Shown piece by piece: positions 16,206-56,631 of a stretch of 64,000 bases of DNA. A program made the translations under genes and the position numbers. Each line of letters begins with the position of its first letter. The stretch's first letter is position 1. The notes beneath the pieces are model-generated. The model saw only the letters and a program-made list of their open reading frames with translations. It did not search any database and was not told where the DNA came from. The DNA is from Balanoglossus misakiensis (lineage: Eukaryota > Animalia > Hemichordata): NCBI GenBank assembly GCA_040954595.2, contig CM082590.2, positions 682,001-746,000 of the forward strand, given 5' to 3'.

Positions 16206-16209
16206 CTTT

Positions 16210-16827
16210 GTATGTATGTATGTATGTATGTATGTATGTATGTATGTATGTATGTATGTATGTATGTATGTATGTATGTATGTATGTATGTATGTATGTA
16301 TGTATGTATGAATGAATGAATGAATGAATGAATGTATGGATAGATGGATGGATGGATGTCTGTCCGTCCACATCAAAAACTTGAAAACCGCTGCGTGTAT
16401 CACCTTGATATTTGGTGTGCAGGTGCAGGCTGGGCTGTAGATGGGAGTTTGTTCAAATGAAGTTGTCATTGCCAAAAATATGCAAATTAGCTGGAAAATG
16501 TGAATTTGGTCAAAACTCAGTAACTCAAGAACTACTGGTCAGATTGCTTTGCGAAGTGGTGTGTATTTACTTTATTGAGTTGTTTATATACACAGCAATT
16601 CCTGAATTATGATTACATAACTGGCTAAGTTTTAAAGAGGCCAGCTGTTCTATTTAGTGTATGTGTACAGTACATATGCCATTGGCAGCTTATGGGTCAG
16701 TAAGTGCTTGCCCATTGATCTCTCGCTATGTGTGTGTGTGTGTGTGTGTCTGTCTGTCTGTCTGTATATGGCCAAGTACCCCGGTGTACACTTTTTCTTG
16801 TGTCACTGTGTCCTTGACGCGATTTTT
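16210..16827 (+). mobile_element. HINE family B, partial copy with expanded (TATG)n/(AATG)n microsatellite
   Basis: Homologous to 1738-1880 and 3235-3445. 3' hairpin tgtgtccttgacgcg. Confidence 0.7.
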
Positions 16828-17854: not shown

Positions 17855-20800
17855 TCAACAGGCGCCTGTGAATCCATAGAAGAGCGTTGGCTTCCGCCTT
17901 CTTTTAGGGTATCTCTTAGGTGTATCTTCGTCTCTGATCATTTCCGGTTTAACCCCCGATGGATCATCAGTGGTTACATCCAGGGTTTCTCCGCCTACTG
18001 CTTCATCTGCATCAGTGTCAAAGTAGTGTTCTTGGGTTTCGGGTGGGGAATCCTTTTGACCGCTGGCATACGTCTTTCCATCAGATGACAATTTGTCAAT
18101 AGGTTCTTCTGATTTTGGTCCACTTGGGGTCCTGGTGTCTGCTTTCTGGGCCTCTTCAAAGGGATCTTCAGGTCTGTTTTCTTGCACCCTCTCATCTAAG
18201 GGGGCGAGCTTCACTTTGTCTAGCCAGCCAGGTAGGTCAGGACCTGTGTATCCCTTCAGCTTCTCAAAGTGAACCACTTTAAACTTTGTCCGGGGCCGAT
18301 GCACGCTGGATCCGGTATACGACGTCAGTCAGTCTGTTCACCACCATATACGGTCCCTCATATGCCATCTGTAGTTTCGGGCTTTGACCTTTCTTCCTCC
18401 TTTCGTCTCTTAGCCAAACAAATTCACCAGGCTGGAAAGACTTATGAAGGGCATTACGATCGTAATAGCTCTTTTGGGTTCTAGTACTTGCTTTCAACTG
18501 CTCTCTTGCCCGGTCATGGGCATTTCGCAACTTATCGCGCAGTTTATCCACATAGTCACCCCCAGATTCCTCCTCAAATTCAATCTCAAATATCAGATCG
18601 TTGGGCAGTGTCACCTCTCTACCCAGCATCATCATATTCAGAGTTTCACCTGTGGCTGGGTGTACCGAAGAGCGGTATGCCATCGTAGCACAAGACAGAT
18701 GTTGGTCCCAGTCTTTTGGTATTTCAAGGGGTCCATATAAGATTTTATCGTTAGACACACAATGGTTGAATTTTTCAACCATCCCGTCTCCCTGTGGGTG
18801 TCTAGGCGTGGTGTATGTTTTGTCCACCCCTAGCAATTTGCAGACTTCCACGAATACTGACGAGATGAAATTTCGGCCTCTATCTGAATGTACCTCGTGA
18901 GGCATACCAAACCTACTGAAAAATTCGTCGACCAGTACCTTTGCCACTGTGGTTGCCTTCTCATTTGAAATAGGGAATGCCTCCATCCATTTGCTAAAAT
19001 AGTCTCCTACAACCAATACCTTCCGGTTGCCATTGTAACTCTCCACAAATGGTCCCAGAACATCAATGGCCACCCTCTCCATGGGACACCCCACCACATA
19101 CAATTGTAAGTGTGAGGATATAAAACCATAATTGTCGTGTGAGGGCGCTATAATTTGTGTGCATGCGCAGACAGTGTTTTTCTTGCTATAGTACATGTAC
19201 TTACCTTGTAACCCTGTCATTCGATCACTGAATTTCATCCGGAGCCATCCACTATGTGGTGAGCGCTGCTACTTTGTACTTACCTTGTGAGATTCAACCA
19301 CTGAATTTCATCCGGCGACATCTACTTTGTGGCCAGCGTTGTTACTTTGATAACTACACATACTTGTTTGGTTCTTTGTTGTTGCGTAGTTGTTTGTTTG
19401 AGGTACTTGTTTTCAAGTCACTTACAGTTTACTATACAAGTCTCGCTCCTGTCAAAACCACTTATGGTCTATCATTATCCAAATTGAACCATTGTAATGT
19501 GTGACTGTATACGGAAGCTGGAATAAAAGTGCTCATTGGAATTGAACTCTAACCGTGGTGTGCGTGTCCAATGTTCCTGTGTTACATAAGGGAGCCTTGT
19601 GCCTTTTACCAGGCACCCGCTTGCGTGAACACACCTCACATGAACGCACCCAAGATCTGACATCTACGGACATGCCATGCCAGTAATACCTCTGCCTCAC
19701 CTTGTCATGTGTTTTTGTCATCCCTAAGTGACCACCTGCGTTTGCATCATGCAACCCTCCAATCACCACATTGTGACACACTTTAGGCAGAATTAATTGC
19801 CATTTCACTAAAGTCCCATCAGCCGACTCCCATCTCCTGTACAGCACACCCCTGTAGACTATCAATTGTTCATACATAGCCCAGTATGCCTTCGTGGCTG
19901 CCGAACACGGAGAGATCTCATTCCAGTCTGGTCGACTTTCCCTCCCCTCCCTAGCCTTCAAGACAACTGAAATATCGGGATCACTAAGTTGACAATCTCT
20001 AAGCTTTTCACTGGACCAAACGACTTCCCTGGCAACAACCTCTGCCTTTGTTGCCAAGGCATTCTCCCCAGTGCCCTTCGCGGTTGGCCAGTCCTGCTCA
20101 TCACAGCTGCCAGGATCAAAATTTTCCCAGTCACCTGGACAGCTGTCCTTGTTTGTCATAGCCGTATCAAACAATCCGCAACCCTCTACTTTGGCATTTT
20201 TGTCCTGAGAACTGTCATCTAGTCTATCGGTCCCTGCACACTCTGGCAGTTCACGGTACAACTGTTCGGACCGTACAACACTATTTTGTCTCATCGATGG
20301 AGATTTGCATTCAAACTCTGGTGCAAGCTTAGTGGATTCAACGCACCTGTACCATTAGTGGTGGTTGGTTCGTGTGCCATACCACACTGTTTGCACTCCA
20401 GACTGGTTTCCGAGATAGCGCATCAGCATTTCCATGGCGTACACCGGGACGATGGATACAGGTATAGTCAAAGCGACCGAGCGTCTCTAACCACCTAGCC
20501 AACTGCCCCTCTGGGTTCTTGAAATTAAGCAACCACACTAATGCAGCATGGTCAGTCCTCAGTGTGAATTTCTGGCCCAGCAAGTAGTGTTTGAAGTATT
20601 TTGTGTACTCGATTACAGCCAACAGTTCACGACGCGTTACACAGTACTTCCTTTCAGCACCCGATAGCACTCGGCCCGCATAACTAACAGGTCTCTCTTG
20701 ACCACCCTGTACTTGGCTCAACACTGCCCCTATGCCAATACCGCTAGCATCTGTATCCAGTATGAACTCACCCTTTTCCATCGGAAAAGCCAAAACTGGT

Positions 20801-21232
20801 GCCGATGTTAGTCTTGCCTTGAGCTGATCAAATGCGTTTTGACAATTCTCTGTCCAAGCAAATACAGAATCTTTCTTTGTTAAGTCATGAAGAGGACGGG
20901 CCAATTCAGCAAACCCCTGTACAAAGAGTCTGTAGTATGACGCCAGCCCCAAGAAGCTTCTTACTTCTGTGACTGTCTCAGGAATCAGCCAGTCTCTAAT
21001 AGCCTTGACCTTTCCTGGATCAGTAGCAACCCCTTCCCGAGAAACACGATGCCCCAAAAACTCAACACTGCGTGCAAAAAGCACACACTTACTCGGCTTT
21101 AATTTGAGATTTGAAGTACGAAGACGTTCAAATACCTTGCACAACCTTTCCAACTCTTCATGCATCAAATGATCTGCCAAATATTATGATGTCATCTAGA
21201 TACAAAAGCAGTATTTCCCACTGCATACCGGT
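17855..21232 (-). pseudogene. Gypsy pol 3' part: RT C-terminal half, RNase H, integrase with GPY/F module
   Basis: YLDD; LDTDASGIGIGAVL...ELLAV...RTDH; HHCC zinc finger (H...GH...C..C); RVAIDVLGPF...SDRGRNF...E; GPY...VVHFEKLK. Several frameshifts and a solo-LTR insertion. Confidence 0.92.
19111..19586 (+). mobile_element. Solo LTR inserted in the Gypsy integrase
   Basis: TG...CA, 476 bp, TSD TAAG at 19107-19110 and 19587-19590, AATAAA near 19522. Removing it restores KAPL|QLYVVGCPMERV. Confidence 0.85.
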
Positions 21233-24200
21233 TGTAGCTGCATAGAGATCGACTTTTGAAGTTTTGTGAGCAATAGCGCCCACTAGAGTTTTAAAAGTTT
21301 TGTTGTTGGAATCTGATTTCCCATGATTCAGCGGCAGCCATCTTTTTTTTCTATTTTCCTTTGACTTATATGCATTTTGTGAGTTTACATATGAGACGTA
21401 CACGCGTTTAGAGCCGATATAGAGATTTTATTCCATCGTTTATGTCATGATGCGGAGAGCATTGCGCAATCGATGCCATTTTGGACTATAGTGATGTTCA
21501 GCCTATACACGGACATATGTTTGTTTGTTGCACTTTGAGCGCGATCGCAGTGAAAGGACATTATGAACAGTCATTGGCTGTATGCCTTGAACTATATTTC
21601 GCGTTCATACATCAGCTCTGTTTGCTGACGTTTTGCAGTTTTGCTTGCTTATTTTCACGAGATCTTACGGTGTTGGCTTACATACGGTGTTGGTCTATAA
21701 CAGTAAACGGTGTTAACGACAGAGAGCCACATTAAAGAGATATGCCACATCAGTCAAGAACGTGTCCGCCTAAATAAATTGGTTGTTGCTGCTACAGTAA
21801 GATCTCTACCTTGAGAGGCGACGTATAGAAAGATCTCCACCCTTCGGAGGCAACATATAGAAAGACACAGAGAAAGAAAACAACCTCCTAAAGTGATGTA
21901 AACAAAGATCTCCATCTTCCAAAGAAATGCACAGAGAACCAGAGACATTGTATACAGAGAGTTGGTGAAGAAAACAAACAAACCACAAACAAACAGAAAG
22001 AGAGAGAGAGAGAGAGCTTCACCAGTAACAATACAGTATACAAAAAAAGAAAGTCTACATACAACAGTGAGTTCATCATAGAGAACATTACTGGTTCACA
22101 TCACTGAAATTATGCATGCAAATATGGAGACAAAGGAAAGAATCACATGCTTAGAACAGAAAATAGAAGAGCTACAAGACACATTGGAAGTGGAAACTAG
22201 CCAAACTGAAAGAGACAAAATACTGAGATGCATGTTAGAATTACAAGATGAAATTCTAGAGCTGAGCAAGTCAGTAGAGAGCAGCAAAGAGCCACGCAGA
22301 AGTGAAAGAAGTCGTAAACCCACAGAGATAATGACTGAATTCCAGGAAACAGAGAGAGTGAAGAAAGAGAAACGAATGACAAAGATCTTTACTCAAAATT
22401 ACCAAACCTGGAAATTAGTCACAAAGTCTGTTCGTGCAAGTCTATGGGAATATTGCACCGAGGACACACTTGATAGTCTGAACAGATCAATGAACCAAAA
22501 CCGAGATGAAGTTATTAAAGCATATGAAGCCCTGTGTGAAGTTTGTCTCCCAGATCAAGAAATGCGGCGACAGACAGACACTTGCACTGCCATCACATGG
22601 CAATTACTCCAAATGATTATAAACAAGACAAAGAATGCAACTGAAGAGAATAACGAACAGCAACTAAACGTCATATTGCAGCAAGACGTCAATGTATCAA
22701 TATTCAGTACAAATTTATCGAGCTCATCGTACACATCGCTGTCTTCAGTAGAGAAACGAGCAGAAGCAGTTGCTGAAATCGCAGCACAAGAACTAGAACT
22801 GGAAACGTTTTGACAAAGAATCGTCCTGGCCAAACAACAAATGACAACATAGGACATACTACACACAGCATAGATACATCCGCCATAGCCAGTATTTTAC
22901 AGAACAGCCTGATGATCAGTAGGTTGCCACTACCAGAGCCGCCTTTGTTCACCGGCAACCCCCTGCAGTACATCGAATGGAAAATCAGCTTTAAAAGTCT
23001 TATAGAGAGCAGAGGTATTGCAGCAGCTGAAAGAATGTACTATTTGAAGAGATATGTGAGTGGCGCAGCACGGAAAGCAGTAGAAGGATTTTCCTACAGC
23101 AGTTCTGAAGAATCATACACAGCGGCATGGAACTTGCTGGAAGAGAGATATGGGCATACTTTCAAAGTTCAAAAGGCATTCAGAGATAGCTTTCCAAATG
23201 GCCGAAAATTAGTCCCAAAGATTCAGCCGGTCTCCAAGAGTTTGCAGATTACCTCAGAGCTTGCAAAGATGCAATCCCACATGTATGAGGACTGAAGATT
23301 TTGAATGACTGTGAGGAAAATCAGCGGTTGTTGATGAAACTGCCAGATTGGGTTGCTTCACGTTGGAATCGCAAGGTGACACAAATGTTGGACAGCACAG
23401 CAGAGTATCCAGGTTTCGAAAGCTTTGTTGAGTTCGTAGCGAAGGAAGCACGTATCGCCTGCAATCCAATTTCATCATTGTATGCCATGAAAGAATCAGG
23501 TTTCGCTGACAACACAAGAGAACCTAATGACAAGGGAAGAAAGGTCAGTAGAAACAAAGGCACCACATTCACAACAGAGTTCAGAGAAGTCAAGAAAGAA
23601 ACGTCTGATGTCAAACAAACATTTGACTCTAAGACATACATACCGAAACCATGCACGTTTTGTCATATTGCAGATCATCAACTCAGCTCCTGTTCTGAAT
23701 TCAAGAAAGGATCGCTAGAAGAAAAGAGGAAGTACATACAGGAAAAAAGAATATGTTTCAGTTGTCTCAAGAGAGGACATAATGCACGAGATTGCCGACG
23801 GAAATCAATATGCGATAGGTGTAAAGGGAGACACCCAACCACACTTCACGATGACTCGAAAGACAGAAAACCTCCCAATGAAACAAAGGACACTACAGAG
23901 GTCTCAGCAGTAGCACACAAGACTCAGTTGGGAGATGGTAAAGGTACTTCAATGATAGTTCCAGTGTGGGTGTCTTCGAAAGAGTCTCCGTCAAAGGAAG
24001 TCCTCACATATGCACTGTTGGACACACAAAGTGACTCAACATTCATCCTAGAAGATATAGCAAAGACAGTCTCTGATGAATGTCAACCAGTTCGGCTGAA
24101 ACTCTCAACGATGTCTTCAGCATCATCCATTGTGGACTGCAAGGTTGTCCCAAACCTGCGTGTCAGAGGAATGTCTTCACACACCTACGTAGACATTCGA

Positions 24201-27200
24201 CAAGCATATACCAGAGACTTCATTCCTATCGATAGATCACACATCCCTACATCAGACACAGCCAAGAGATGGTCTCATCTGCAGAGTATAGTTCATGAGC
24301 TCGCCCCCCTGCAAGGTTGCGAAGTAGGTTTGCTCATCAGCTACAATTACCCACAAGCACCAAGAGAGACTATAATTGGAGGAAGTAATGAACCTTATGC
24401 TGTCAAAACAGACCTGGGATGGAGCATTGTTGGGTATGAAGATCCAGTCCTACACAACAATACACACTTCTGCAATTGCGTCTCTGTGAAGGAGATTCCC
24501 TTCATATCTCCCAAGCAAGTCATAGATGCATTAGAGTCCGACTTTTCAGAAAAGAGTCATGGCGAGAAAGCCATTTCACAGGAGGACATCCAATTCCTCA
24601 ACATTCTAGAGACTGGCATACAACAAACAGAGGATGGTCAGTACAGTATGCCACTTCCGTTCAAATCACGAAAACCATCACCGCCGAACAACCGAAGAGC
24701 AGCAGAGATACGCCTGCAACATTTGAAGAAGAGATTCAACAGTGATCTAAAGTATTATTCCGACTACAAGAGATTCATGGAAGAAGTTCTAGAGAGAGGT
24801 GACGCAGAGAGAGCAGACCCCCAAAGACAGAGATGAAACAGTCTGGTACATACCGCACCACGGTGTGTATCATCCCCACAAACCAGAGAAAAAACGGGTG
24901 GTCTTCGATTGCTCAGCGCGCTAAGGTGGAACCTCCCTGAATGATCATCTACTCACTGGACCGGACTTGATAAACAGTTTGGTTGGTGTATTATGCAGGT
25001 TCAGGAAACACCCTATAGCAGTAGCATGTGACATAGAGAAGATGTTTCATCAGTTCCTCGTACACGAAGCAGATAGAGATTACCTAAGGTTCCTATGGTG
25101 GGAGAACGGCGATATCAACACAGAACCCCAGGAATATCGCATGAAAGTACACCTGTTCGGAGCCGCATCATCTCCCGCATGTGCAAATTACGGTCTGAAG
25201 CATCTTGCAAATGAAAACAAGATAGAGTTTCCCCTAGCAGCGAGTTTCCTGCAAGAGAACTTCTATGTAGACGATGGCCTCACCAGTACAAACTCTACAG
25301 ACGAAGCAATAAAGGTGATAGAAGAAGCACAGAGTGTGTGCGCCAGAGGAGGATTACATCTCCACAAGTTTATTTCGAACAGCAGAGAAGTAATGGACGC
25401 TATCCCTGTTGGTGAAAGAGCCAGTGGTGTAAAGAATGTATATTTGAGTCTTGACAGCCTACCAGTAGAGAGAGTGCTAGGGATCCAGTGGTGTGTAGAA
25501 ACAGACATGTTCAAATTCAACATAGAGGCCAAGGATCAACCCCCCACACGTCTTGGAATCCTGTCTACAGTAGCCTCAAGCTACGATCCGCTCAGCTTCC
25601 TTGCTCCATTCATCCTGATTGGCAAGAGAATTCTTCAAGATATGTGTCAGAAGAATATCAGCTGGGATGAGCCATTACCTGAACACTTACATCCAGTGTG
25701 GAACAAGTGGAAGGCAGATTTTGAGAATTTGAGAGAAATTCACATTCCATGGAGCTATATCCCTCCCGACTTTGGAACGGTCCTGAAAACGGAACTACAC
25801 CACTTTTCAGATGCGAGCAGTAGCGGGTACGTACAGTGTTCTTACCTTCGCGTCATCGGTCACAACCAAGTACACTGCTCATTAGTTGTTGGAAAGGCCA
25901 GAGTTGCTCCAATCAAGATAGTCACTATTCCACGCCTGGAGCTGACTGCAGCAGTAGTGTCTGCAAACGTAAGCAGTAAACTCAAAGAAAGGTTAAACAT
26001 CAATATTGACGAAGAGTACTTCTGGACAGACTCACAGGTGGTGTTGAGATACATCAAAAATGAAGCCAGAAGATTCCATGTATTCGTAGCCAATAGAATC
26101 CAGAGAATCAGACAAGTTTCCGAGCCAAGTCAGTGGCATTACATTCCCACTGGAATGAATCCAGCAGACCACGCGTCGAGAGGAGTCTTTGCATCTGAGT
26201 TGCAAAACTCAAACTGGTTCAAGGGACCTGATTTTCTAAGGGAGAGAGAGTTGGAATTGGTAGAGGAACCAGCCTACGAATTGAATATCGGAGACCCAGA
26301 GGTGAAGAATGTGACAACTCTCACAACTTCTACGCAAAGGGAACCGTTCAACATAGAGAACCGCATGTCCTGTTTCTCCGTATGGTCAAAAGCAGTTGGA
26401 GCAGTAGCACGTATCAGAAGAATATTGAGAAACAGAAAGGGTAGCAACGCTCCATCCAACCCAAAAGAGAGAGAGGAAACAGAAAGATTTATCGTCAAAG
26501 CAATCCAAGGTCAAGCCTTTGGTAAGGAAATCATGGCGCTAAAGAAGTCATCCAAGGTGAACAGAAACAGTAACGTCTACAGTCTCAACACATTCCTTGA
26601 TGAAACTGGTGTTTTGAGAGTTGGAGGCCGCTTGAAGAATATCAAGACTCCAGATACAGTCAAACACCCAGCCATTCTGCCTAGAGAAAGCCATGTCACA
26701 AGATTGATCATTTCCCACTATCACAGTAAAGTTCAGCACCAATGAAGGGGAATGACACTCAACAGTATTCGAGCCAATGGTTATTGGATCATTAGAGGAA
26801 TAAAGGTCGTATCCTCTCACATTCACAAATGCATTACATGCCGTCGACTTCGCCGCCCAGTTGAAGAGCAGAAAATGGCAAACCTTCCAGAAGATAGAGT
26901 GGAACCGGCACCCCCTTCACCTACAGTGGTATGGACTGCTTCGGTCCCTTCATAGTGAGAGATGGAAGGAAGCAACAGAAGAAGTATGGTCTTCTATTCA
27001 CATGTATGTGTTCAAGGGCCATCCACATCGAGATGCTTGACGACATGTCCACAGATTGCTTTATCAACAGCCTGCGATGTTTCATTGCTATACGAGGTTG
27101 TGTACGACAGCTACGGTCGGATCATGGAAGCAACTTCGTGGGAGCGAAGAACGAATTTTAAGAAGCCCAAAGAGAATTGGATGTAGAAAGAGTTCAAGTA

Positions 27201-28561
27201 TATCTTACAGAGCAACAGTGTGAGTTCACCATGAACTCCCCCCATGCCAGTCATGCAGGTGGTGTATGGGAACGACAAATTAGAACAGTCAGAAGTGTTT
27301 TGTTTTCACTTCTACAGTAGTCTTCAGGACGTCTAGACTCGGCATCGCTACGTACATTCCTGTATGAAGTCATGGCCATTGTAAACAGTCGTCCACTCAC
27401 AGCAGAGACCCTCAATGACCCTATAAGTCCAGAACCTCTTACTCCAAATCATATACTCACCATGAAGTCCTCATCAGCTTTGCCACCCCCTGGTACATTT
27501 GTAAAGGAAGACTTGTACATCAGAAAACGCTGGAGGAGAGTGCAGTATCTGGCAGAACAGTTTTGGGGCAGATGAAAGCATGAATACCTGAATACCCTCA
27601 TGAAATGCCAGAAGTGGAACACACCCAAGAGAAATGTAAAGGTGGGAGATGTCGTCCTAGTAGGTGATGATCAACTCCATCGTATGGAATGGCCACTGGG
27701 CATAGTAACGAAGACTATAGAGAGTGATGATTGCCTGGTGAGGAGAGCTATGATTCAACTTGGTACGAAGAGACTTGACAAGAAGGGCAGACGAGAGAAC
27801 AAGCTGTCACTTTTGGAGAGACCAGTCCAGAAACTGATTGTTTTGCTTGAACGAGAGTGAAGATATGAACTAGTTGTAGTCGATCATTATGCCTGAACTT
27901 TTAAATTTCTTATGGCATAAGTAATTTGGTGGGAGTGTAGCTGCATAGAGATCGACTTTTGAAGTTTTGTGAGCAATAGCGCCCACTAGAGTTTTTGTAG
28001 TTTTGTTGTTGGAATCTGATTTCCCATGATTCAGCGGCAGCCATCTTTTTTTTCTATTTTCCTTTGACTTATATGCATCAAACGGAGGTGAAAATCGCCA
28101 TCATTTCTTAGCGTACCAACTGATAGGCCCACGAGGTAACACATTTTCCCAGTTTGTATTTTGTGAGTTTACATATGAGACGTACACGCGTTTAGAGCCT
28201 ATATAGAGATTTTATTCCATCGTTTATGTCATGATGCGGAGAGCATTGTGCAATCGATGCCATTTTGGACTATACACGGACATGTTTGTTTGTTGCACTT
28301 TGAGCGCGATCGCAGTGAAAGGACATTATGAACAGTCATTGGCTGTATGCCTTGAACTATATTTCGCGTTCATACATCAGCTCTGTTTGCTGACGTTTTG
28401 CAGTTTTGCTTGCTTATTTTCACGAGATCTTACGGTGTTGGCTTACATACGGTGTTGGTCTATAACAGTAAACGGTGTTAACGACAGAGAGCCACATTAA
28501 AGAGATATGCCACATCAGTCAAGAACGTGTCCGCCTAAATAAATTGGTTGGTGCTGCTACA
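21233..28561 (+). mobile_element. BEL/Pao LTR retrotransposon, full length but inactivated
   Basis: LTRs at 21233-21796 and 27936-28561 (TGT...ACA), 5-bp TSD CCGGT, PPT ggtgggag at 27928-27935. It interrupts the Gypsy RT between ERVFTG and MQWEILLLYLDD. Confidence 0.95.
22112..27860 (+). pseudogene. BEL/Pao gag-pol polyprotein (stops and frameshifts)
   Basis: Three Cys-His knuckles, protease ALLDTQS, RT FYVDD, Pao RNase H HFSDAS...TIPRLEL...WTDS...NPAD, integrase MDCFGPF...SDHGSNF. Confidence 0.92.
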
Positions 28562-28566
28562 CCGGT

Positions 28567-29140: not shown

Positions 29141-30606
29141 TTATATATATATTTATTTCAGTATCTTAGGTCACCGGCCTTCATACAATAATTAAACTGA
29201 TAAATATACAGACATGCAGTGGGGCTTACATTGACATAATAGATACAATGCCATCAAAACAGAAATAGACGTGTATTATCTCTTAACTTAAAACATAATA
29301 AATAAACTTTGCCAGATTTACTAAGGTGTGGGGGTTTTGAGAGTTTAACAGGCTAGAGTATTTCTTCAATGAGGGTTGCTGATAGTGGAATGGTGAGAGA
29401 AAACGTGTTCTTAATTCCTTGTAGATGGGACAAATAAGACAAAAGTGAAATTCCGTTTCAACTTGCTGTAAAGTACAAGACTGACAAATTCTGTTTTCTC
29501 TTGTTAACCCTTCAAAACGGCCACTCTCTATTAAAAGTTTGTGGTTTGAAATTCTAAATTTACAAAGGGTGACTCTAAATAGCTCAATATTTACACAATT
29601 CAAATATTTTTCAAAAGACAAGTTATTTTTAAAAAAACGATAAGAATCCATCTTAGTGGAATTGACCAATTCACTGTGCCATACCTGCTGACCAATATCC
29701 AGGCATCTTTGTTTAAAATTTGAAAGAAAAAGACATTCGTTTCCCACAGCCTGTGACTCCGTGGCAATACCAAAACCAAAATAAAATAAAAGGTCTTTAA
29801 CCTTTTTGGCCCAACAATTACAACCTTTGTCTGCCATTTCACGTTGGTAATCATAACATTGCTTAGTATATCTATAATTGTCGCTATGAATTAATTTTAC
29901 CCAGTATTTAATAATGCGTGGTAGACGAAGCGTTTTCAAAGATTGTCTGCCCAGTTCACCCAAGACAGCTAAATTGGTTGACCTTGAACTAACCTTGAGT
30001 ATATATTTACAGAAATCTATTTGAATTTTTTCAACATCCTTACCCTCATGAAAACCCCATACTTCACTACTGTACATAAGTATTGGAAGAATTTTTTCAG
30101 TCGAAAATTCGTAGAGCTAGCTCTATGTCTATGTTTTTAAACTGACTCAGATATCTTTTAATATTGTACATAGCTTTGTTTAGCAAGGATTTCTTGAGCC
30201 TTTGTCCAGATTCCTGAACAAGACAAGGTCAGACCGGGGTAGTTAAAATACGGTACTGTCTGAACCTGGACCCCATTCAATGTCCATCTCTCGTAATTTT
30301 TCAACCTTCCCCCACTCCTGAAGACAACAATTTTTGTCTTGGACCCATTAACTTTTAGTTTCCATCTGTTACAATAAATACACAATTTGTTAAGCTGTCT
30401 TTGTAGTCCAATTACTGAATTACCTACAATTGTTAAATCGTCAGCAAAGCAAAGATACAAGAGCTTCAAAATTCCTACATAAACACCATTAAACATGCCA
30501 TTTTTGAGGGTTTCGCAAAGATCATCGATGAAAAGATTAAATAATAATGGGGACAAAACAGATCCTTGTTGCACACCATAAGTACACTGGAAAAAGTTTG
30601 TAATCC
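29141..30606 (-). mobile_element. 5'-truncated APE-type LINE (RTE-X-like)
   Basis: QGSVLSPLLF...FADD; SEVWG...GELGR; C-terminal CxxC...H...C; AATAAA and (TA)n tail; 11-bp TSD CTTGTGTATAA at 29130-29140 and 30607-30617. Clade name is a motif-based guess. Confidence 0.85.
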
Positions 30607-31263: not shown

Positions 31264-32612
31264 AATAGAATCTCACACTCCCAAGGACCTGGGATCGTAT
31301 TTCTCACACGAGTTGGGGATTTTTTGTATCCCCGACGAGTGTGAGAAATACGATCCCAGGTCCTTGGTGTGTGAGATTCTTTTTCTCACACGACCAGAAA
31401 TTTGCGATATTAACGTTTATTTACAACAAAAGAACTAAATCTCTAAAATACCAACTGATAACTGCATGACCGGCCATATATTGATCCGCCCTGCAAAACA
31501 TAGTCCCCATTTCATCACGAGTTTACAGTACACACATGCTACAAAAATGTGCCCAACACATTAAAATATGGAGATTGTTTCCTGTGGCATAAATTCGCGC
31601 GATATCTAGACAAGTGACCTATCGGTCAAAAGAGCTCTGCTGACTTTAACAGTGAAACCTATAGCTGGGCAATGATATGAATACCCTAGGTTTTAATCAT
31701 AACTGTTGTATTCTATTAAAATACAAAAACAAAAAACAAAAAAAACCTTTGAACCCCAGGGCCCTGAGAGCTTGAGAAACATTTTTAGGTACCTTTTAGA
31801 ATTACAGCTGGCTTCTAAAATTATCAAGGATAACCCCGTATAACCATATATTTTTGGAATCGCCATAGAACTATTGTCCCAAAACTATGCAAATTAAGAT
31901 CATGTGACCTCATTATATATTCAAAATGGCCACCAGAATGTAAAACACTGGATATTTTTTCATATATTTATATATTTTCCTAGTAGATCTTCAAAAAATC
32001 ATGATTTTCCATCACCAAACCTTTGTTTTATAACAAATCACAATGAACTGACATGAAATTGCTCATAATACTTGAAGATACACTGGTATTTCACTCAGTC
32101 TGGCTCATCAAGTATGCAGCAAACAAAAGACCTTGGATAAGGTTTAGGGACGTCATCACATCATCTGGCATAACATTTAGTACTTGAAATTATCAAAGAT
32201 TACTCCCAATAACCATATATTTTTGAAATCACCATAAAACTGTTGTCCCAAAAATATGCAAATTAAGATCATGTGACCTCATTATATATTCAAAATGGCC
32301 ACCAGAATGTAAAAAACTGGATATTTTTTTTATATATTTATATATTTTCCTAGTAGATCTTCAAATTATTATCATTTCCCAACACTAAACTTTGCCTGAT
32401 AACAAATCAGAATGAACTGAAATAAAATTGTTTATAATATTTGAAGATAAAGACGTATTTCCCCCCATTCTGTGTAAGTTTACAAGCCAGTCATATCGCA
32501 GTATATACAGTTACTTGGCAATCATTGCAGAACTGAACATAAAACTGATCACAGTTTGCAAAGTCTATGACATAACATGCAAGAACACAAGAAAACACAA
32601 TTATATTGAAAT

Positions 32613-34110
32613 AAAAATAGCGTCAAGGACATTGTGGTCCCATTTGAGGACATAGCACGTAGCAACATAGCAATAAGCATATCTGCTCTGGATGCCAAGA
32701 TATGGAAAAGTAGGTTAAAGGTCACCTGAGGTCATGCAAAATTTGGGCAAGAAATTTTGACCCTATACTGGTCCATGTTCAACAAATCCAAACCTATAGC
32801 CCAATTGGTTAGCCTGGAATTAGGTATGCACATAATTAATGAGATATGCAGGTGTCACAGGTGACCCCCAATTTTGGCTTTTCAATTATAGTCCCAACCC
32901 TCCAAACGCCATGTCTGTACCTGCTCTGGATGCCAAGATATGGTAAAGTAGGTCAAAGGTCACCTGAGGTCATGCAAAATTTGGCAAGAAATTTTGACCC
33001 TATACTGGTCCATGTTCAACAAAAACCAAACCTATAGCCTTATTGGTTAGCCTGGAATTAGGTATGCACATAATTAATGAGATATGCAGGTGTCACAGGT
33101 GACCCCCAATTTTGGCTTTTCAATTTTAGTCCCAACCCTCCAAACGCCATGTCTGTACCTGCTCTGGATGCAAAGATATGGTAAAGTAGGTCAAAGGTCA
33201 CCTGAGGTCATGCAAAATTTGGGCAAGAAATTTTGACCCTATACTAGTCCATGTTCAACAAAAACCAAACCTATAGCCTTATTGGTTAGCCTGGAATTAG
33301 GTATGCACATAATTAATGAGATATGCAGGTGTCACAGGTGACCCATATTTTGGCTTTTCAATTTTAGTCCCAACCCTCCAAACGCCAAGTCTATACCTGC
33401 TCTGGATGCCGAGAAATGGTAAAGTAGGTCAAAGGTCACCTGAGGTCACCCAAAATTTGGGCAAGAAATTTTGACCCTATACTGGTCCATGTCCCACAAG
33501 AACGAAACCTCTAGCCCTATTAGCTAGCCCGGAATTAGGTATGCACATAATTAATGTATTAAGCAGGTGTTACAGGTGAGCCCCAAAATTTGCCTTTTCT
33601 TTTGGCCCCATTGTGTTCACTGACCAATAGACAGTCACTGTACAGGACTATTGCACAGACCAGAATTCCACAATAAGACGTGGACATAGCTTAACCATAG
33701 AGGTATAAGTAAAGGTAAAAATTTAATAAAAAGACTAAAAAATTCATAAAAAATAAAACATGATATTAACTTAACACTTACAGGTCGATGTGAGGTTGAC
33801 ATAAGGTACATGCATACCAATTTTTAAAGCAATCTGACCAGTAGTTGTTGACTTTCAGAGTTTTGACAAATTTCACATTTTACTGGCTAATTTGCATATT
33901 TTGGGGCCTGGCAACTTCGTTTTAACAAACTCCCATCTACAGCCCTGCCTGCATCTGCACACCAAATATCAAGGTGATACGCGCAGCGGTTTTCAAGTTT
34001 TTGCTGTGGACGGACATACATACATACATACATCCATACATACATACATACAGACGCAACCGATCCCATAAGGTCCCATGGTATATAGGCCTATACCAAT
34101 GACACCTAAA
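32613..34110 (-). mobile_element. HINE family B copy carrying about four 238-bp tandem repeats (32680-33610)
   Basis: Reverse complement of the family B termini. Repeat anchor aaagtaggtcaaaggtcacc recurs near 32707, 32945, 33183 and 33421. Confidence 0.75.
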
Positions 34111-53808: not shown

Positions 53809-56631
53809 AGCATAGTGCATACATGTACAAGCCAGGCAACAGGCGATTGTGCCTACGGTCTCATTGAGATCTTACGAGTACGCCCCTGCTTGACCAGCTA
53901 AGAGGGGCTACACAGAAAAGGATCACTGTAACAGTACGAACGCTAGCTCGTCAAATGACTATTTTTTCTAAACTTTGCAGCGCCCCAACGTTATCTTGTT
54001 TTCAAATGCGGAAGTGGTGTGCTGATTTCCCGCGTAATTTTCTAAGCTTATTTACGTCGGAATAATCGTATTTTACCAGTCATTTTCACCATTTATCGAT
54101 AGTTTGTAGTTTAAGGTATTAAACGACACATTTTTACGGAAATATCTTGATAAACCTTTCGGAAACATGATAAAACTTAGAGATTTTGGGAAAATAATAA
54201 ACATCGAATGTATAGTGTTTAAAGATGTGCAGCACTTTCTTATAAAAAATAATTGTTACATTTTGCAACGATTTTTGGTAATTTCAATATATATTCTGAC
54301 GATTTAAGAAAAAAAGTTTGTGTACCTCCATGGGTCTTTGCAAAATCGCCCCTGATTACAAGTGCAACAATTCCGTTCTATAGCATGTATAGTATAGCGC
54401 ACACGCCTGACTAGTGCATAGCTCCTGAACCTTCGTATGATGCAGTATACGTAGCGTGAGCGTCTCCTCGTGGGTGAATTTTCGTGACATGTTGATGCGA
54501 TATCGCTTGTCATACCTCGAAGACTTGCTTTTACAAAGGTTCTGACCAAAAATACAACATATTTTCTTTGTGATTTTCAATTGTCTACTTGTCGTATTGG
54601 TGTCCGGGACTATTGTCTGGCTCAAACGAAGCTCCATCGTGTGTCGGTCACGTCATATCCGCTTATTATGAAAAAGATCGGTAGTTTGAAAACGGCCTTT
54701 TGGTACTGCACTACGCTCTTTGGCTTATTATGAAAAAGATCGACAGAGTTTGAAATGATCGGTAGTTTGAAAACCGCCTTTCGGCACTGGTGTTTTTCAG
54801 CCTACGTTGGCACTACGTTTATCGGCCGACAAAGTGTGAAAATGATCGGTTGTTTTTAACACCTATATATATCTGCATAGAACAATTAATAGACGACGAC
54901 ACAGCATTTCTGTACAATTCTAGTCTTTATTGTTGATCATGATCGCACTGACGTGTAACACACTCAATTACAACCCAAACATTCACCCTCACAACCCCCC
55001 TCGGCCTCCCCCACGAAGTAATGGTATCACACAGGGTAAAGTTAGCGCCGTATACTTGTACGTACGATACACCAGATCCCACTTGTATATGGTTCACTAA
55101 GATGTGCAGCAAATTTTTATAAAAGCTCCAAGGAAGGTAACATTTTCCAGTATTACAGCTAAGTAAACAATCTAGGGTTCGAACACATTGTTTTTTGTAC
55201 CACTTGCAGTTTTCGAAATATTCGCCTCGAAACATTGAAAATGGCAATTTTTCACGACTAAACAAACAACACTACGATCTCGTAAAAAATACTAGCGTAA
55301 TTATCTGACCTTATGAAGACACAAAAATTGAACACGATACAGTTGGAGGACCACTTTCCTCACTCAAATCGTCATTTAAAAAAACACATGAGGATATGCG
55401 AAGATACACGGCCTGATTTCTGACGGTGTTGTTTACATGATTGGAGGCTGTCATTTTGAAATTTATCACATGACCTCTGCTTAATGCGCGCCCTCTATGA
55501 GAGCAACCTGCTTTCCGGCTGTAAATAAGTAATATTTTACTATATCGTGATGCATGTATGATTGAACAGGCGGGATGCATCTGTAATGTATCGGCGTAGA
55601 TGCACAGTTAGCAACCATTGTTTATAATGTCGTCGGTTTATACTGGGTAAACTAAAGGAATCACGCAGTATATTGAAGAAATGTGGAAAATTATGAAGAA
55701 ATAGAAAAGAATTTCAAAAATCGAAAACAACACGATTGTGGCATGACATATCAACTTTTGCAATGTGAAGTTTCAAGCTGTTTTATGAAGAAATGAAAAT
55801 TGTGAACCGAGAGATTTTTATAGTACCGGCGAAAACCGCACATAGCTTCATGACCCCATTGTTTCCTTGTATGCAAGTCTATTTTAGGTCATGTTCCAAA
55901 AAACTCACCGGTTCAAAATTTTTATTGACTCCCCAGTGAAAACACATATTGGAAGTCATACGTTTTTTTCATTATAACGGCCATGTTATGGTTTTCGATT
56001 CTTAAAATTGCTTATTTACTTATACCGAAATCGAAATTTTATAACGTAACTATGGCATGCAGTAATTAGCTGGCAAATTACGTATAGCTAGCAATTCCGA
56101 GGCATCGTACCTTACCGTCAGTTTCCAATAAAATTCAGTATGAAAAGTAAAATTTTCAACAGATTTCAGTAAGTTGATAACATATTTGCCAATGTACGGA
56201 AGATAATTATTAATACTTAGTGTATTATCCCAAGCCAGACCCGAATCTGGAGCGATCGCCTGTCTCAGATCGAGTGGCACAATTCGGACGCGTTGAATTC
56301 AGCTCATGAATATTTAATTTCGGCGCAGTGAACAGTTTTGAGACCGTCTTGCCCGTAGTGGAAAAATCATCAGACAATGGCATGAATCTATAAACTTAAA
56401 GAAGAAGAGTATAAAAAAGTTTCCCCTGAGCTTGTATAGGCCCAATGTCTTGGGAAATTACAACATGCACTTTTCCCATTGTTCAAGTCACGAAGCTTCG
56501 CTCCCACGAGAATAATGCAAATTAAGAAATATTGATTTTGTTAATTATTCAACAAGTCGACAAGACAAAATAATCAATGATGTGCGCACAAAATACGCCA
56601 TCTTAGAATTTGACCTTTGGAACTGACAACG

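Follow-up and report, generated by a model that had tools for sequence, protein, structure and literature searches.

The window, the whole 64,000-nt stretch of Balanoglossus misakiensis DNA analyzed here, carries a degenerate BEL/Pao element at 21233-28561, which is flanked by a 5-bp target duplication, CCGGT (21228-21232 and 28562-28566). Across the 545 nt that align between its two LTRs there are 6 substitutions, and the LTRs differ further by three gaps, of 81, 17, and 2 nt. Because an empty-site joint skipping 7334 nt (7329 + 5) is present in two of the three public runs, both ends of the element are fixed independently. Its main parts, all on the plus strand, are as follows.

21233-21796, plus strand: 5′ LTR, 564 nt (from the LTR alignment, the target duplication and the empty site)
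21659-21668, plus strand: 10-mer pairing with the primer site, consisting of a G, a predicted acceptor AG (21660-21661) and the 7 nt with which the predicted exon 2 begins (21662-21668)
21731-21778, plus strand: possible poly(A) signals in the part of the 5′ LTR that follows the 10-mer, namely ATTAAA (21731) and AATAAA (21773)
21797-21806, plus strand: predicted primer-binding site GTAAGATCTC, its first base right after the terminal CA of the LTR; no TGG
21799-21862, plus strand: two imperfect leader repeats of 31-33 nt, each beginning with AAGATCTC, with a third partial copy at 21905
22082-27859, plus strand: remains of gag-pol, with DUF1759, triple Cys-His box, protease, RT (YVDD), RNase H (DAS) and integrase
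27928-27935, plus strand: polypurine tract, abutting the 3′ LTR
27936-28561, plus strand: 3′ LTR, 626 nt (from the LTR alignment)

The assignment to BEL/Pao is made on protein evidence. The element matches the Pfam families DUF1759 (E 9e-11) and Peptidase_A17 (E 1e-45), and comparison with the protein hallmarks given in the available part of PMC554778 identified the triple Cys-His box, the order protease, RT, RNase H, integrase, the YVDD and DAS motifs and the Pao Pfam families. LTRs that begin with TG and end with CA, the target duplication and the polypurine tract are present as well. The protease site reads DTQ instead of DTG/DSG. Decay of gag-pol is evident from shifts of reading frame in at least three places (near 23200, 24820, and 26910) and from seven in-frame stops in the aligned pieces. 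The BEL element was itself inserted into a Gypsy-type element, of which RT/RNase H and integrase frames remain on the minus strand at 19533-21183. The leader repeats, each restarting with part of the primer site, are possibly decoy sites or packaging signals, and the second of them contains a CUUCG-like small hairpin sequence.

A sequence-only reading of this DNA had noted that a tRNA-type site is missing from the element and that the primer site is complementary to its own LTR, and both observations were borne out. No tRNA-type TGG follows the 5′ LTR, GTAAGATCTC directly adjoins the LTR end, and its reverse complement is present in both LTRs (21659-21668 and 28424-28433), such that pairing of the site with the element's own LTR sits in the register for priming, at the LTR edge. 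The recurrence of AAGATCTC at 21830 and 21905 was likewise found again. The LTR 10-mer ends 128 nt ahead of the LTR end, a third copy of the reverse complement lies at 53866, outside the element, and no tRNA genes were found within the 64-kb window. Of 20000 dinucleotide-shuffled versions of the LTR, 12 contained the 10-mer in this register and 42 contained it at any of the offsets 0-3. Across the window, 404 of 63426 positions show an equal match within the preceding 564 nt, a background that favors chance complementarity in a single degenerate copy; the register at the LTR edge argues against it, as do the related families described below.

Relatives were collected by aligning the RT region of the window element with 32 of 120 listed homologs, leading to 88 loci, 9 on genome contigs and 79 on metagenome contigs. 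The contigs that carry them are probably host DNA of aquatic animals, the protein matches listed included sequences from a hemichordate, fish, corals and a sea star, and scanning of viral contigs found no relatives there. Nine of the loci (L001-L009) are BEL/Pao contigs filed in bacterial genome bins, probably through contamination by host DNA. Polypurine tracts, LTR starts and gag starts were located in the relatives, and the first base of the primer site was placed by eye, often after a match had been noticed. LTR ends were checked by comparing the two LTR copies for the window, L013, L019, L070, and L077 only. The scored set holds 39 rows, the window and 38 of the 88 loci, and since the rows are related to one another, the counts given below are not counts of independent events. 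Of the 50 loci outside this set, 22 closely duplicate loci that were scored; the other 28 do not.

In all 39 rows, TGG is absent near the primer site, and the 18-nt site for a tRNA 3′ end that is listed as a feature of the family by the ICTV was found neither in the window element nor in its 38 relatives. Instead, pairing of at least 10 nt with the element's own LTR is present in 31 of the 39 rows, compared to 21 of 1442 pairs in which LTRs and sites had been swapped. This result contradicts chance complementarity at the level of the family and, together with matched changes in the locus closest to the window (L017), leaves that explanation with practically no weight. The LTR complement alters in step with the primer site across the scored rows, as had been expected from the sequence-only reading if the pairing were conserved in related families. 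Among the 31 rows there are 23 distinct primer-site 10-mers, 22 of which start with GT and vary freely thereafter. In the relatives, the complement in the LTR is 5-12 nt long, lies ~60-240 nt before the LTR end and usually follows a pyrimidine run and an AG, and pairing begins 0-5 nt past the LTR end and extends over 10-14 nt of Watson-Crick pairs. The predicted duplexes between site and primer are modest (-9 to -18 kcal/mol), and a poly(A)-type hexamer is found between the primer match and the LTR end in 23 of the 31 elements.

The same pairing might be structural or regulatory, masking a 5′ poly(A) signal, aiding packaging or acting as a translation switch, with priming left to a tRNA fragment or some other primer. 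Such a role is in keeping with the ICTV description of the family as tRNA-primed (PMC8742986) and with the priming of some copia elements by tRNA halves, described in the available part of PMC6317226. It does not predict, however, that pairing should begin at the LTR edge or at most 5 nt from it, where minus-strand synthesis starts, nor the peak of pairing lengths at 11 nt described below, and the diversity of the 10-mers is ill-suited to one conserved tRNA fragment, just as the universal absence of TGG is to a tRNA end. We consider a structural or regulatory role improbable.

In the second main branch of the relatives (L042, L046, L050, L061, L065, L067, L070, L074, L077, L078, L081, L043, L086, and L007), the primer site begins 2-5 nt past the LTR end and the purine tract stops 1-3 nt before the 3′ LTR, offsets suggesting that the cDNA ends are longer and are trimmed by the integrase. 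In L012 (5880-6010), the exon-2 start and the primer site both look duplicated, and the extra 6-nt pieces are mutually complementary.

The match between primer site and LTR is split in most relatives. Just 4-10 nt are contiguous in the DNA, following a pyrimidine tract and YAG, and the remaining letters precede a GT donor 74-1321 nt upstream, as identified by comparing the primer-site letters past the contiguous match with the letters before any upstream GT in the same LTR. Pairing of at least 10 nt is obtained across GT...AG in 27 of the 39 rows and contiguously in 7, and 24 rows, with 17 distinct 10-mers, reach this length only across GT...AG. In these 24 rows, the total length is 11 nt in 18 cases, 13 nt in four, and 10 and 12 nt in one each. 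Donors read GTRAG in 16 of the 24, compared to 56 of the 2030 GT in these LTRs, acceptors read YAG in 24 of 24, compared to 697 of 1311 AG, and the share of pyrimidines ahead of the acceptors is 0.70 versus 0.55; none of these three features played a part in the search, whereas the GT itself is found in 24 of 24 by construction. When GT was swapped for each of the 15 other dinucleotides, an equal match was found in 0-3 of the 24 rows.

Two loci are without exactly the predicted intron. In L018 precisely the 168-nt GT...AG segment present in its near twin L019 is missing, and pairing there is contiguous over 11 nt; in L041 the missing piece is precisely the 263-nt segment of L027; both are contigs that may derive from DNA or RNA. 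The features of a U2-type intron, namely a GT donor consensus, a pyrimidine tract, YAG and exact loss, are present at the level of the family. An automated scan downstream of the integrase in 18 further loci added three, L017, L002 (11 nt spliced versus 6 contiguous) and L049 (14 nt spliced versus 6 contiguous), and a scan of the region before gag in 13 of the 50 remaining loci returned no matches. Eight of the 39 rows pair over fewer than 10 nt; six of these have partial or deleted LTRs (L080, L010, L024, L001, L023, and L065), the other two, L054 with 9 nt and the distant L009 with 4 nt, seem to be genuine misses. An RT tree was built from the 39 rows, rooted at the midpoint only, without named references, with L017 left out and with L006 and L009 on long branches. 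Split forms are found in each of its two main branches, and L046, L054, L061, and L081, all contiguous, group in one clade (support 98/93), in which L054 pairs over only 9 nt.

From these sequences, a primer made at a splice junction of the element's own RNA is the best reading for the window element and its relatives, and we regard it as quite probable; a wide BEL/Pao group likely uses a piece of its own spliced RNA, rather than a tRNA, to prime reverse transcription. The support at the level of sequence consists of the absence of a tRNA-type site, the register, the co-variation, the splice signals and the two exact losses of a segment. In the mechanism that we propose, transcription would begin at a point of the 5′ LTR that precedes the donor, and the host spliceosome would excise a cap-proximal LTR intron, joining 3-8 nt from exon 1 to 4-10 nt from exon 2. 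The splice junction would base-pair with the primer-binding site, and the RNase H of the element, by analogy with Tf1, would cut just 3′ of the paired stretch, leaving a 3′-OH at the LTR edge. The strong-stop cDNA would then be transferred to the 3′ copy of exon 2, so that the intron would be inherited when the 3′ LTR copy is unspliced and lost when it is spliced. The cap-binding complex favors cap-proximal introns, a preference that could make splicing asymmetric between the 5′ and 3′ LTRs. Plus-strand synthesis would copy the primer and rewrite the primer site every cycle, which would account for the tight co-variation of site and LTR. With somewhat less assurance, we favor the view that a large aquatic branch of BEL/Pao needs, in order to copy itself and hand its LTR intron down, to have that intron spliced out near the start of the RNA and retained near its 3′ end, and that intron-less lineages have repeatedly reverted to contiguous self-priming.

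The sequence-only reading had proposed self-priming in a BEL lineage with the 10-mer as the first 10 nt of the transcript, in the manner of Tf1. The first part is upheld by the own-LTR pairing in register at a site that is not of tRNA type and by its co-variation across related families; the second part finds no support in most relatives, in which the match is only partly contiguous. A transcript start at or just before 21659, which that reading had also predicted, gives way to a predicted start upstream of the splice donor. Plain self-priming of this kind, with a start at or just before 21659, the first 10-12 nt serving as primer and no splicing, draws on the 10-mer being contiguous in both LTRs of the window element and on the seven rows in which pairing of 10 nt or more needs no splice, some of which belong to the clade of L046, L054, L061, and L081. 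A TCAGT-like sequence is an initiator motif, and the YAG acceptors resemble such motifs. Folding of the RNA gave the primer helix a probability of 0.4-0.6 for starts at 21657-21659, yet only 0.13-0.18 for starts at 21650-21655. Against plain self-priming stand the 24 rows that have 5-9 contiguous nt and gain 10-13 only across GT...AG, the closest relative of the window element, which has 9 contiguous nt plus the same donor stretch, and other copies that carry C at 28424. On balance, we judge it unlikely. No conserved TATA or initiator was found at a fixed position upstream of 27 donors (3 of them indexed 1-2 nt off), and a TATA-like motif at 28070 and a TCATTT at 28101 in the 3′ LTR of the window are candidates only. 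The AG before the match was at one time considered as an initiator A+1 marking the start site and was dropped when the donor test accounted for the remaining letters. In 12 of the 27 rows a GG(A/C)C motif starts 10-14 nt ahead of the donor, for example at 28126-28129 in the window, just upstream of the paired letters.

A primer made by splicing could also act in trans, as a short, spliced and polyadenylated LTR transcript from 3′ or solo LTRs, with the packaged genome RNA remaining unspliced, which would explain the survival of the intron. The poly(A)-type hexamer that follows the primer in 23 of the 31 rows leads one to expect a short RNA of exon 1 and exon 2, and an unspliced template is needed for the intron to be retained in most families. 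A primer in trans is required by no observation, however, since retention of the intron in the 3′ LTR accounts for its survival in cis, and the intron-less L018 and L041 fit splicing of the packaged template. We give a primer in trans a slim chance, and the junction primer in cis is followed below.

In the window's own copy, the parts of the predicted intron are found in the 3′ LTR.

28077-28157, plus strand: 81 nt that this copy has in its 3′ LTR but not in its 5′ LTR; contigs from each of the three public runs cover them
28123-28139, plus strand: 17-nt stretch identical to the LTR of L017, containing GAG (28133-28135), where exon 1 is predicted to end, and the predicted donor GT (28136)
28136-28426, plus strand: LTR intron predicted from the sequence, 291 nt; the acceptor is GAG here and YAG in relatives
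28427-28433, plus strand: 7 nt at the start of the predicted exon 2, which would form the 3′ part of the primer

The 10-mer of the window is best read as a G, the acceptor AG and 7 nt of exon 2, and the AG at 21660-21661 is taken as an acceptor because of its counterparts in the relatives. The 5′ LTR is without the 81 nt that bear the predicted donor (gap after about 21373). Since this stretch is covered by contigs of all three runs, the gap is read as a deletion from the 5′ LTR, and since both LTRs are copied from one RNA, the donor was probably lost after insertion. A similar arrangement is seen in L080 (465-798), a second element in which the 5′ LTR diverges from the 3′ LTR after 91 nt and has no donor.

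Taken by itself, the window copy makes a weak case for splicing. Joining the letters before the GT at 28136, which follows GAG, to those after 28426 yields the same 10 letters as the unspliced sequence, only 3 exon-1 letters pair, and 132 of 400 random remainders do equally well. A competing GT at 28088 ties with that at 28136, the donor at 28136 does not rank within the top 8 of 27 when scored with an intron-side matrix made from the relatives, and the best-scoring GT by that matrix, at 28163, gives no longer match. The acceptor is GAG, with a CAG 23 nt upstream; divergent copies in two of the three runs carry C at 28424, which makes a CAG acceptor, and no close copy spans that base. With this weak GAG acceptor, unspliced RNA has the same 10 letters, and the parent of the window copy may have primed either way. 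Among the joints listed for the three runs, none removes 28136-28426, although contigs cannot show absence, and a contig joining foreign sequence at 28426 was set aside as a likely Hi-C ligation artifact, as the loose ends of that run end in GATC.

Independent support for a splice in the window element comes from L017, which is the closest of the loci (64.5% over 400 aa). The 17-nt stretch around the donor is the only significant similarity between the LTRs of the two elements (E 8e-5), and only 1 of 2000 shuffles got to 16 nt. L017 has a TAG acceptor and pairs over 10 nt when spliced and 9 nt when unspliced, and compared to the window it has a matched change, with position 3 altered in the primer site and in its LTR complement alike.

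Among known systems, the nearest in function is Tf1, in which the primer-binding site pairs with 11 nt of RNA from the element itself and RNase H cleavage frees the primer (PMC7175516, PMC5341516, in the parts available). Like Tf1 and Tf2 of Schizosaccharomyces pombe and the Tf1/sushi group, the window element has no tRNA site and pairs with ~11 nt of its own RNA, beginning 0-5 nt after the LTR in the group as a whole, and 11 nt is also the modal length here. Tf1/sushi elements are Ty3/gypsy chromoviruses, a different superfamily, and the Pol of the window element is not a chromovirus Pol. By its sequence, the window element would work like a Tf1-type self-primer without belonging to the Tf1/sushi group. 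RNase H cleavage has been demonstrated for Tf1 and is assumed by analogy in the BEL/Pao group, and the predicted BEL/Pao primer would have a 5′ leader, unlike that of Tf1. The Tf1 primer is the capped 5′ end of the transcript; in the BEL/Pao rows, splice signals were seen ahead of the match in 24 of 39, and a search for a conserved start motif found none.

Self-priming has also been predicted for the plant lineages Tcn1 (Ty3/gypsy) and TAR (Ty1/copia), on the basis of a complement of 10 nt or more that begins 0-5 nt past the 5′ LTR, and the window element agrees with this description; these lineages differ in their contiguous match, plant hosts and superfamilies, and the available part of that source describes no splice junction (PMC6317226). 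The ICTV profile of Belpaoviridae (PMC8742986) gives an 18-nt site for tRNA-Arg or tRNA-Gly, unlike the window element and its 38 relatives. Domain order, LTR size, polypurine tract and hallmark motifs are shared with that family (PMC8742986, and PMC554778 as far as available). Sinbad, Sparrow and Surcouf (Sailor lineage), Suzu and Dan form clades of aquatic animals (PMC6238403, available part), and the hosts of the protein matches listed fit these clades. The main texts of PMC554778, PMC3118150, PMC6238403, and PMC8556966 contain neither 'PBS' nor 'tRNA', and the available portions of PMC3601003 and PMC8220671 have nothing on BEL priming. No report of self-primed or splice-primed BEL/Pao elements was found in the literature covered, with Repbase and subscription journals lying outside that coverage, and an earlier mention of plain BEL self-priming is possible. 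A paper on the Cer elements of C. elegans reportedly mentions an element-encoded primer.

If splice-junction priming is true of this group, the reference description of Belpaoviridae as tRNA-primed needs correcting, and self-priming extends to a third superfamily of LTR elements. The primer would be assembled by splicing, tying mobilization to host RNA processing such that it could be regulated by tissue or stress, and the group would show how an element copied from RNA can retain an intron. A primer built by splicing from the element's own LTR would also explain the failure of primer-site finders on these elements.

Elsewhere in the window, a stop-free frame of 277 aa on the minus strand at 29283-30116 has no Pfam match and is similar to the C-terminal portion of an ORF of non-LTR elements. 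Further repeats noted, at 31818-33596 and at 16209-16498 / 33801-34055, are tandem units of ~369 and 238 nt and a TGTA microsatellite, as well as a dispersed repeat present as an inverted pair.
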